Part shown: in pieces, positions 61,549 through 62,044 of the stretch
How the letters are laid out: every line of letters begins with the position of its first letter
How positions within the stretch are numbered: the stretch's first letter is position 1
NCBI GenBank assembly: GCA_944392275.1
Contig: CALXWA010000001.1
Location: 4,737 to 68,736, forward strand
Length of the DNA: 64,000 nucleotides
DNA from: an uncultured Alphaproteobacteria bacterium
GTDB taxonomy: Bacteria > Pseudomonadota > Alphaproteobacteria > RF32 > CAG-239
Reading direction: 5' to 3'
Notes under the pieces: generated by a model
Told to the model about the DNA's origin: nothing
Seen by the model: the letters and a program-made list of their open reading frames with translations, nothing else
The model's database searches: none
Made by a program: the position numbers and the translations under genes

Positions 61549-61624
61549 GCCGGTTTAGCTCAGTTGGTAGAGCAACGCATTCGTAATGCGTGGGTCGGTA
61601 GTTCGAGTCTACTAACCGGCACCA
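61549..61624 (+). tRNA. tRNA-Thr (anticodon CGU)
   Basis: GCCGGTT acceptor, anticodon arm ACGCA-TTCGTAA-TGCGT, TTCGAGT T-loop, encoded CCA. Aligns closely with E. coli tRNA-Thr(CGU). Confidence 0.9.
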
Positions 61625-62000
61625 TAAAAATTCCCCGAGAGGGGATTTTTTTGTGCCAAAATAAAGACCGCTCGAACTACCGAGGAAGGAGTTCGACCAG
61701 GAGGAGCAGGCGAGACGGAAGTATCGCCGCCCTTGCGACGACGCAGCGACGCCGCTTTTATAAAAGCGAAGTCAGTCTACTAACCGGCACCATAAAAATT
61801 CCCCGAGAGGGGATTTTTTTGTGCCAAAATAAAGACCGCTCGAACTACCGAGGAAGGAGTTCGACCAGGAGGAGCAGGCGAGACGGAAGTATCGCCGCCC
61901 TTGCGACGACGCAGCGACGCCGCTTTTATAAAAGCGAAGTCAGTCTACTAACCGGCACCATAAAAATTCCCCGAGAGGGGATTTTTTTGTGCCAAAATAA
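61607..62000 (+). repeat. Tandem 168-bp direct repeats (2 full + 1 partial) starting inside the 3' end of tRNA-Thr
   Basis: Each unit is GTCTACTAACCGGCACCA (the tRNA 3' end), the terminator hairpin AAAAATTCCCCGAGAGGGGATTTTTTT, and a ~95-bp GC-rich module. Unit starts at 61607, 61775 and 61943. Confidence 0.85.
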
Positions 62001-62044
62001 AAAGCTTCATAGACTTTCTAAAAAAAATCCCTATAGTTGATAGT

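Follow-up and report, generated by a model that had tools for sequence, protein, structure and literature searches.

We describe a short repeat array behind a threonine transfer RNA (tRNA) gene in an uncultured Alphaproteobacteria bacterium (GTDB lineage RF32; CAG-239). The array lies in a stretch of 64,000 nucleotides of assembly GCA_944392275.1 (contig CALXWA010000001.1, positions 4,737 to 68,736, forward strand), which we call the window. Here the intact tRNA-Thr(CGU) gene is followed by a cassette in which a GC-rich, non-coding core is set into a partial copy of the neighbouring tRNA gene. We read this core as transferable because it occurs at two different tRNA genes, is wrapped in the local tRNA sequence and the local terminator, and is conserved beyond what neutral DNA would allow. 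The reading that we favour, with a chance a little short of even, is that the core is a small insertion element, non-autonomous and directed to the T-loop region of tRNA genes, the arrays being resized via recombination of the flanking repeat. A repeated tRNA 3' end is as a rule accepted as proof that an integrase has inserted an island, and automated island finders build on this sign. We do not read the present array as the attachment-site (att) scar of a decayed integrase island.

Tandem Repeats Finder (TRF) reports a single tandem array at 61606 to 62001, with a period of 168, 2.4 copies (2.36), 100% matches and 0 indels. Its order is R-U-R-U-R, where each 168-bp unit is made of R (60 bp) and U (108 bp). 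R comprises the last 19 nt of the tRNA (A58 to A76), the terminator hairpin TCCCCGAGAGGGGA with a T7 run, and the 13 nt GTGCCAAAATAAA. It begins at A58 in the T-loop TTCGAGT, position 61606 (the tRNA was numbered from its sequence), and all R copies of the window agree in the 41 nt that follow CCA. An earlier note on this DNA, made from the sequence alone, had reported that the last 18 nt of the tRNA recur at 61607, 61775 and 61943, each time before a terminator hairpin and T-run. We recovered these exact matches of the 18-mer (0 expected in shuffles) as part of a longer repeat, 19 nt from 61606 within the 60-bp block, and the hairpin and T-run follow every copy, inside R. The note's GC-rich segment is indeed the GC maximum of the 64 kb (best 80-bp window of U 66% GC, against a window mean of 38.8%), and U as delimited here measures 108 bp. 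There is no other copy of U or R elsewhere in the 64-kb window. The open reading frame (ORF) 61564-62040 is, as the note had stated, an artefact of the repetition: its 158 aa start inside the tRNA, are periodic and have no Pfam match above cut-off, only sub-threshold, repeat-inflated ones. The features of the locus, all on the plus strand, are as follows, with the two neighbouring genes last.

61549 to 61624, plus strand: tRNA-Thr(CGU), intact and with CCA encoded (ARAGORN; Rfam tRNA, 69.7 bits); T-stem 5' strand GGTAG at 61597-61601, T-loop TTCGAGT at 61602-61608, A58 at 61606
61606 to 61665, plus strand: R copy 1, 60 bp; tRNA 58-76, hairpin 61632-61645 with T-run, GTGCCAAAATAAA (repeat search, terminator scan)
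61666 to 61773, plus strand: U copy 1, 108 bp, non-coding, 66% GC
61671 to 61683, plus strand: a', inverted copy CTCGAACTACCGA of tRNA 47-59 (61595-61607), a 13-nt exact reverse complement
61672 to 61696, plus strand: hairpin 1, TCGAACTACC / GGAGTTCGA (folds, 7-mer match); its 3' strand includes AGTTCGA at 61690-61696
61697 to 61773, plus strand: conserved core (lineage alignment), ending in GCGAAGTC
61699 to 61706, plus strand: purine run AGGAGGAG, part of the conserved core
61709 to 61728, plus strand: hairpin 2, GGCGAGAC-GGAA-GTATCGCC, part of the conserved core
61736 to 61750, plus strand: CGACGACGCAGCGAC, part of the conserved core
61753 to 61768, plus strand: 16-bp palindrome CGCTTTTATAAAAGCG (self-match), inside the core, in the window species only
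61774 to 61833, plus strand: R copy 2, same as copy 1
61834 to 61941, plus strand: U copy 2, same as copy 1
61942 to 62001, plus strand: R copy 3, then unique flank 62002-62044 with a promoter-like site for mutY
62045 to 63052, plus strand: mutY (A/G-specific adenine glycosylase), conserved right neighbour, outside the cassette
60130 to 61485, plus strand: murD, left neighbour, outside the cassette

The left part of U is built from the T-arm of the tRNA that precedes it. The inverted copy of tRNA 47-59 at 61671-61683 is a 13-nt exact match, which was equalled by 0 of 2000 shuffles. It pairs with the 3' strand of hairpin 1, a degenerate direct copy of the T-stem 5' strand and the T-loop up to A58 (tRNA 49-58). 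Hairpin 1 is kept in all lineages, and in the group A relatives introduced below the inverted and direct copies are both near-perfect, CTCGAACTACCG-AAG-CGGTAGTTTGA. The general order is thus intact tRNA, terminator, a short unconserved AT-rich spacer, the inverted T-arm copy, a loop of 3-6 nt, the direct copy of tRNA 48/49-58, the GC-rich core of about 80 nt, tRNA 58-76, and the same terminator again. In other words, the cassette repeats part of the tRNA gene, from the T-arm through CCA and the terminator; this second copy is split by the core between A58 and G59, and its left end is capped by a snap-back-like hairpin. Of the 48 tRNA genes in 1.2 Mb of retrieved DNA, only those that bear the module have downstream an inverted copy of the T-arm or a repeat of the 3' end.

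With an nhmmer profile, homologues of U were located in four further lineages (groups A, B and C, and L008), which with the window species makes five, and all of these belong to one clade of uncultured Alphaproteobacteria. The units of group A (L102, L103, L105, L112) measure 163-165 bp, and group C (L118) has at least two 166-bp units that are about 3% apart. The seven loci of group B (L108, L111, L115-L117, L121, L124) have one more diverged copy each, with the pseudo-3' end AGTCTGCTGACCGACACCA and a direct T-stem copy GGCAG that is complementary to its CTGCT. Degenerate remnants of U are found in L007 and in group D. The core features that are conserved comprise AGGAGGAG, hairpin 2 (GGC(G)AGAC, tetraloop, GTAT(C)GCC) and CGACGACG(C/A)AGCGAC; a degenerate pattern of the core matched cassette loci only (15 of 124 loci). 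The presence of the cassette varies under the same synteny, since it is missing in L100 and L110 as opposed to L118, and in L009 as opposed to L007 and L008.

Two of the cassettes, L008 and L007, are associated with tRNA-Leu(CAG). Both came from a MutY-based GTDB retrieval (at least three close loci). All three of their flanks are of the Leu type (CTCGAACTTCC, GGAAGTTTGA, AGTCTTCTCCAGGGCACCA): where the tRNA-Thr loci have the trio CTCGAACTACC / GGTAG... / AGTCTACTAACCGGCACCA, the tRNA-Leu(CAG) loci have CTCGAACTTCC / GGAAG... / AGTCTTCTCCAGGGCACCA. The core of L008 is closest to the Thr-linked core of L118, and the T-loops of both target tRNA genes share AGTTCGAGTCT.

Variation at this position is also seen in a species whose flanks are 95-99% identical. 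It has at least four alleles of the tRNA-Thr 3' flank, between the tRNA and a conserved 131-aa ORF, as found by comparing L104/L119/L122, L111/L116/L117, L121/L124 and L113-L115. The alleles are a B-type module, a D-type degenerate module, a B module with a 522-bp insertion exactly where the pseudo-3' end stops, and an insertion of 1.2 kb that has two small ORFs and in which only GCACCA is repeated. A further relative, with MutY 69-70% identical, breaks at the same place 45 bp upstream of mutY in Logan contigs from two independent samples (L004 1-45, L087 1-45). The break lies in the GC-rich CAGGGCAGCGACAGCAACCGCAGCGAGCC, which resembles the group D module and suggests a repeated or polymorphic cassette there too.

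The tRNA-Thr(CGU) gene is a true integration hot spot in the relatives. A scan of metagenome contigs with the 19-mer gave 25 loci, with an identical tRNA gene in all. In L101 genes for a tyrosine integrase (PF00589), an HTH_17 protein and a C5 cytosine methylase come directly behind the tRNA (element 5304-8487), and sequence divergence sets in immediately behind CCA. L120 has a large serine recombinase with Resolvase, Recombinase and Zn_ribbon domains (8169-10448, plus strand, locus coordinates) that reads toward and across the tRNA-Thr, which is on the opposite strand; its ORF is extended to 760 aa, the sequence after CCA is element-specific, and the 9.6 kb covered stop short of the element's other end.

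These junctions allow a direct comparison with the array, which the earlier note had taken for the scar of an integrase at this tRNA. Part of that proposal stands: a direct repeat of the tRNA 3' part lies behind an intact gene, the sites left empty in close relatives that the note had asked for do exist (L090, L091, L098), the number of units varies between 0, 1 and 2, and the tRNA is used by integrase elements (L101, L120). What does not fit is the sequence after the regenerated tRNA end, which is element-derived in L101 and L120, whereas in the array it belongs to the host. The terminator within R is completely different between the window species, group A and L008, yet within each of them U has an identical terminator to its left and to its right; the stretch of 36-41 nt that follows CCA, which is terminator and flank of the host itself, belongs to the repeat in all three lineages with a readable duplicated R. 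A species-specific terminator is thus duplicated around U, and therefore a shared mobile attP cannot produce the array. Moreover, L112, from the same assembly as L101 (PPYE01), holds the end of an element (part 1-1300), then the last 47 nt of the tRNA from the anticodon loop onward, and beyond this displaced fragment the terminator, U, the 19-mer and the terminator again. Since U lies on the host side of the attR of the tyrosine element, it is independent of that element.

It is quite unlikely, in our view, that the array is a decayed mini-element of an integrase island at the tRNA 3' end, similar to cis-mobilizable elements (CIMEs) and amplified by repeated integration or by recombination of att copies. 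The boundary at A58 would suit a serine-recombinase island in the T-loop, and the Dehalococcoides ssrA islands, made by a serine recombinase, show a 20-bp repeat and mid-T-loop insertion (PMC3146451); CIMEs and tandem accretion are likewise established (PMC5704250). The 522-bp insertion of group B indicates that copies of the tRNA end can serve as secondary sites. A recombinase of the serine type was seen at this tRNA in L120 and not in the window. Against an island remnant, no Phage_integrase, Resolvase, RVT or transposase domain was found in the window ORFs of at least 110 aa, and no integrase, reverse transcriptase or transposase was called in the 10 kb downstream of the window array. Conservation of 91% between species is not what one would expect of a remnant in decay, and the inverted and direct T-arm copies are not predicted by an att origin. 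The GC-rich module, which the earlier note had called foreign-looking and wished to see searched against plasmids and phages, is not compositional debris. It belongs to a conserved family with tRNA T-arm copies, and no relative was found in phage, plasmid or viral-contig collections. With blastn in distant mode, U gave nothing against plasmids and one 22-nt chance match (E=0.1) against phages, and three exact or degenerate patterns of U gave nothing in viral contigs. A 23-mer of U had no match in GTDB genomes or JGI metagenomes, a weak result given that it spans the G/A polymorphic site and a loop that varies between lineages.

The number of units differs between strains of the window species. 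Conspecific loci were found via the exact MutY protein and a one-residue variant, on contigs of independent animal-gut metagenome assemblies, and the murD-mutY spacer was parsed in 13 conspecific contigs. Three of them have 0 units (L090, L091, L098), where tRNA, R and flank follow each other and U is absent; 1 unit is present in L003, L092-L094 and L096, and 2 units in the window, L001 and L097, the latter two being independent assemblies from other samples. The flanks of strains with 0, 1 or 2 units are >99.5% identical (0-7 differences per 1-1.5 kb). Between L090 (0 units) and L094 (1 unit), for example, 3 of 1000 bases differ upstream and 0 of 1500 downstream. As the flanks are near-identical despite the differing unit number, the copy number changes faster than point substitutions accumulate.

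Within a strain the units are alike, and between strains they are unlike, differing by a G/A single-nucleotide polymorphism (SNP) in the loop of hairpin 1 and by a unit length of 168 or 169 bp. In the two-unit strains both units share the SNP state and the length; the window and the otherwise identical L001 are told apart solely by one A, which concerns both units. Mutations private to the distal R occur in L094 (terminator) and L096 (C to T in the pseudo-3' end), and the proximal R, as part of the functional tRNA, keeps its sequence. With identical units placed head to tail, a copy number that is polymorphic among near-identical genomes, and units that are alike inside a genome and different between genomes, the locus behaves as a tandem array. 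The polymorphism is observed directly, and from it we infer with high confidence that the array is resized by unequal homologous recombination or replication slippage between the 60-bp R copies.

All assemblies are short-read, so that absolute copy numbers are uncertain and could be higher. An assembly artefact, in which the repeat or the repeat number results from short-read mis-assembly, is nevertheless scarcely credible. In L002 and L095 a scaffold gap of 100 N falls exactly on the array, the contigs of L097-L099 and L103 break off within it, and the one-A difference between the window and L001 could be seen in the same light. However, over 10 independent assemblies, made from different samples and with different assemblers, contain R-U-R together with SNPs particular to the strain; the two-unit state was seen three times, among them in the independent L001 and L097; diverged homologous cassettes exist in other species; and the units of L118 are about 3% apart, which is impossible for a collapse or an expansion. 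The repeats, which the earlier note had left exposed to this objection, are genuine.

The conservation of U stands out from that of its surroundings. Between the window and the group A species, MurD has 67% protein identity and an MscS-like channel 60%, four-fold degenerate sites are 35-37% identical and hence saturated, and the terminators and spacers cannot be aligned. U, in contrast, is identical at 88 of 97 positions (91%), apart from one 7-nt indel. With synonymous sites saturated, this identity must be due to purifying selection or recent transfer.

Such a pattern would also be expected of an RNA gene, and we considered whether U, the tRNA-like 3' end and the terminator form a vertically inherited array of tRNA-derived small RNA (sRNA) genes that is under selection, with R homogenised by concerted evolution. 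We regard this as rather unlikely, but several observations agree with it. The window and the group A species have murD and tRNA-Thr in the same arrangement, as vertical descent would allow. In four lineages hairpins 1 and 2 persist, with few compensatory events: hairpin 2 has lost one base per strand between lineages (GGCGA/TCGCC to GGCA/TGCC), and in hairpin 1 a bulged base is swapped and there are G-U transitions, with G-U on the tRNA strand in three lineages. The tetraloops resemble the GNRA type (GGAA, GAAA). A terminator, predicted by the terminator scan to act in both directions, closes each unit, and the AGGAGGAG tract (CUCCUCCU on the opposite strand) lies between the hairpins. The whole unit including the terminator folds with z of about -5 on both strands. 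On the other side, the folding z of U with the 19-mer is modest or nil (-2.6, -2.3, -0.6, -3.4 and +0.15 in the five lineages), and the RNAalifold consensus is weak (-5 kcal/mol, covariation term about 0), although it was run on a MAFFT alignment that is not structure-aware near hairpin 2, so that its pair counts understate conservation. The promoter scan showed no sigma-70-like promoter inside the unit on either strand. Rfam 15 gave only the tRNA at threshold and nothing credible at E up to 10 on either strand, for the array region and three homologous loci; at gathering threshold, the whole window likewise yielded only tRNA, and no cuckoo/CcsR-type family was among the matches. The module is dispensable, as 0-copy strains exist, and it has decayed in several lineages (L007, group D, unit 2 of L118). 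The switch from Thr-type to Leu-type flanks is also hard to achieve via point mutation or gene conversion. From about five lineages, the evidence for a structured RNA gene is suggestive and falls short of sufficient.

We further compared the cassette with other known types of elements. U is not protein-coding: the ATG-initiated frame of L008/L118 reads ATC in the window, a 7-nt indel separates the window from group A, and no frame is conserved. A tmRNA (transfer-messenger RNA), a split or permuted tRNA and a T-box have no ARAGORN or Rfam support, and no 5' acceptor-strand partner was seen by eye. An integron attC-like site, or a tyrosine- or serine-recombinase crossover at a|core|b, does not fit the junctions in any simple way (left ...TTYGA|C, right ...C|AGT), where the overlap or central dinucleotide is not duplicated on both sides. 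For an IS110 bridge RNA or a group II intron guide, U is too small and has no recombinase or intron domains, and the 60-bp duplication is unfitting. A miniature inverted-repeat transposable element (MITE) or another miniature element mobilised by a transposase was rejected since no inverted repeat joins the ends of U, no terminal inverted repeats of the core were found, and the duplication of 55-61 bp varies in length. None of the tested known element types explains the cassette.

We consider with moderate confidence that the core can be transferred and that, when it inserts, its flanks are made from target sequence. In the mechanism that we envisage, insertion would split a partial tRNA copy between A58 and G59, and the target would be duplicated from the T-loop through the terminator, so that the tRNA stays intact. 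The resulting R-U-R could then be resized by unequal exchange or slippage between the R copies, giving 0, 1 or 2 units that are homogeneous within a strain. The 58/59 boundary, the variable 55-61-bp duplication, the unconserved filler and the inverted-loop-direct copy at the left end are reminiscent of copy-based processes, template switching or snap-back synthesis. A more specific version, that this is a new type of mobile element which homes to T-loop A58/G59 of tRNA genes sharing AGTTCGAGTCT and inserts by copying (possibly with a reverse transcriptase or by template switching), the snap-back hairpin being left from the T-arm, seems unlikely to us at present.

A further explanation is one complex replication error in an ancestor, in which a stalled fork would have switched templates at the hairpins of T-arm and terminator and created the partial inverted and direct tRNA copies around filler DNA; vertical descent and unequal crossing-over would have done the rest. 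A short flank present in inverted and direct copies with a small loop is what fold-back or template-switch events typically give, there is an AGTC microhomology at the U/R junction, and tandem expansion is easy once R-U-R is present. We nonetheless hold this explanation to be very unlikely, given that the same core and architecture occur at two tRNA genes with matching flanks, that the core is conserved far beyond neutral expectation, and that the distribution is patchy (L100 and L110 without the cassette, L118 with it; L009 without, L007 and L008 with it).

Several points weigh against a transferable insertion element. The 0-copy alleles may be deletions and not sites that were never occupied. 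In group B the pseudo-3' end matches neither tRNA and the terminator is not duplicated, which our model does not predict. The association with tRNA-Leu consists of two loci, of which L008 ends just upstream, its tRNA being deduced from L007 and the 19-mer, and L007 is degenerate. The lineages available number about five and come from a single clade. At the loci examined, no autonomous partner (a recombinase or reverse transcriptase beside a copy of the core) was found, and we know of no free or circular form of the core. Finally, the conservation and the species-specific terminators are accounted for about equally well if a functional RNA under selection is inherited vertically and R undergoes concerted evolution; what this leaves unexplained is the re-tailoring of the flanks to tRNA-Leu.

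Elsewhere in the window, three further features were noted. On the minus strand, two copies of about 120-140 nt (48484-48625 and 51806-51926, with blocks 96% and 89% identical, and each copy closed by a terminator hairpin) flank the ORF 48857-51718 (954 aa, no Pfam match), just downstream of tRNA-Glu(CUC) at 52044-52119. These copies could be a duplicated 3' region, an sRNA or the borders of an inserted gene. The ORF 14173-16719 (849 aa) contains about 15 tandem 72-bp units at 15565-16656, 63-77% identical, with weak DUF285 and ephrin-receptor-like matches, and encodes a repeat-rich protein, probably a surface one. A 224-aa ORF with a metallo-beta-lactamase fold (30473-31144, minus strand) has a sub-threshold match to the anti-Pycsar protein Apyc1 (39.5 bits against a cut-off of 50) and is probably merely a related hydrolase.

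Overall, the locus is a look-alike of an island scar that fails the key test, as the host terminator lies inside the repeat. What it contains is a conserved non-coding module re-clothed in the sequence of the adjoining tRNA gene. A mobile module would point to a mode of DNA insertion at tRNA genes that has not been described and that leaves these genes intact. Should the module instead be an RNA gene, it would be a new family of tRNA-derived sRNAs with strain-level dosage variation in uncultured gut Alphaproteobacteria. In either case, the 0/1/2-copy polymorphism in near-identical strains is a natural experiment and a practical strain marker. There is a real chance that the cassette is something new.

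Retroelements that are primed by tRNAs use an 18-nt primer-binding site which ends at tRNA position 58/59 and is complementary to the tRNA, and target-primed or self-primed complementary DNA synthesis gives rise to 5' inversions and snap-back hairpins. Our cassette resembles such junctions in its 18-19-nt block of the tRNA 3' end with the boundary at 58/59, in the inverted-loop-direct left end, the variable duplication of 55-61 bp and the AT-rich filler. The block has the same sense as the tRNA, however, and the window ORFs of at least 110 aa contain no RVT domain. To our knowledge, a mechanism of the retroelement type is not known for bacterial chromosomal elements of the size of this cassette.

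According to the Islander concept, displaced 3' fragments of tRNA or tmRNA genes mark integrated islands (PMC4383910), and CIMEs as well as tandem accretion are treated in a review of integrative and mobilizable elements (IMEs) (PMC5704250). The array has in common with these an intact tRNA with its 3' end directly repeated behind it, empty sites, an insert without integration genes and a tandem layout, and the same tRNA is used by genuine integrase elements (L101, L120). It differs in that the repeat runs through a species-specific host terminator and that the insert is a conserved, non-coding segment of 108 bp with copies of the left flank of the target and without a mobile-element relative.

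The ssrA islands of Dehalococcoides are attributed to the serine recombinase DsiB and have a 20-bp repeat that starts midway through the T-loop (PMC3146451). Several tandem repeats downstream of the gene, and a recombinase gene directed toward or across the target as in L120, are similar. In contrast to the array, the DsiB repeats bound islands of several kb with an integration module, and there is neither a duplicated terminator nor the 5' half of the T-arm in the island end. For mycobacteriophage Ms6, the attP core lies in the T-loops of tRNA-Ala, is continuous over 26 bp, and the whole T-loop is the probable overlap (PMC1762012). The site from T-arm to 3' end is alike, as the direct T-arm copy and the 19-nt copy around our core would add up to a core site of 29-30 nt, but here the identity block begins at A58 and the would-be core site is broken by about 80 nt.

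The tandem sRNA arrays of the cuckoo/CcsR family (PMC4615179, PMC8034643) are also alphaproteobacterial, with tandem, hairpin-rich units of about 100 nt, a variable copy number and a C/U-rich motif resembling an anti-Shine-Dalgarno sequence, which in our case is CUCCUCCU on the minus strand of U. Unlike in that family, the motif lies between the hairpins and not in the loops, on the strand opposite the tRNA, no promoter was found, and the flanks are derived from a tRNA. Each of the closest precedents therefore shares one or two features with the cassette, and none shares its anatomy.

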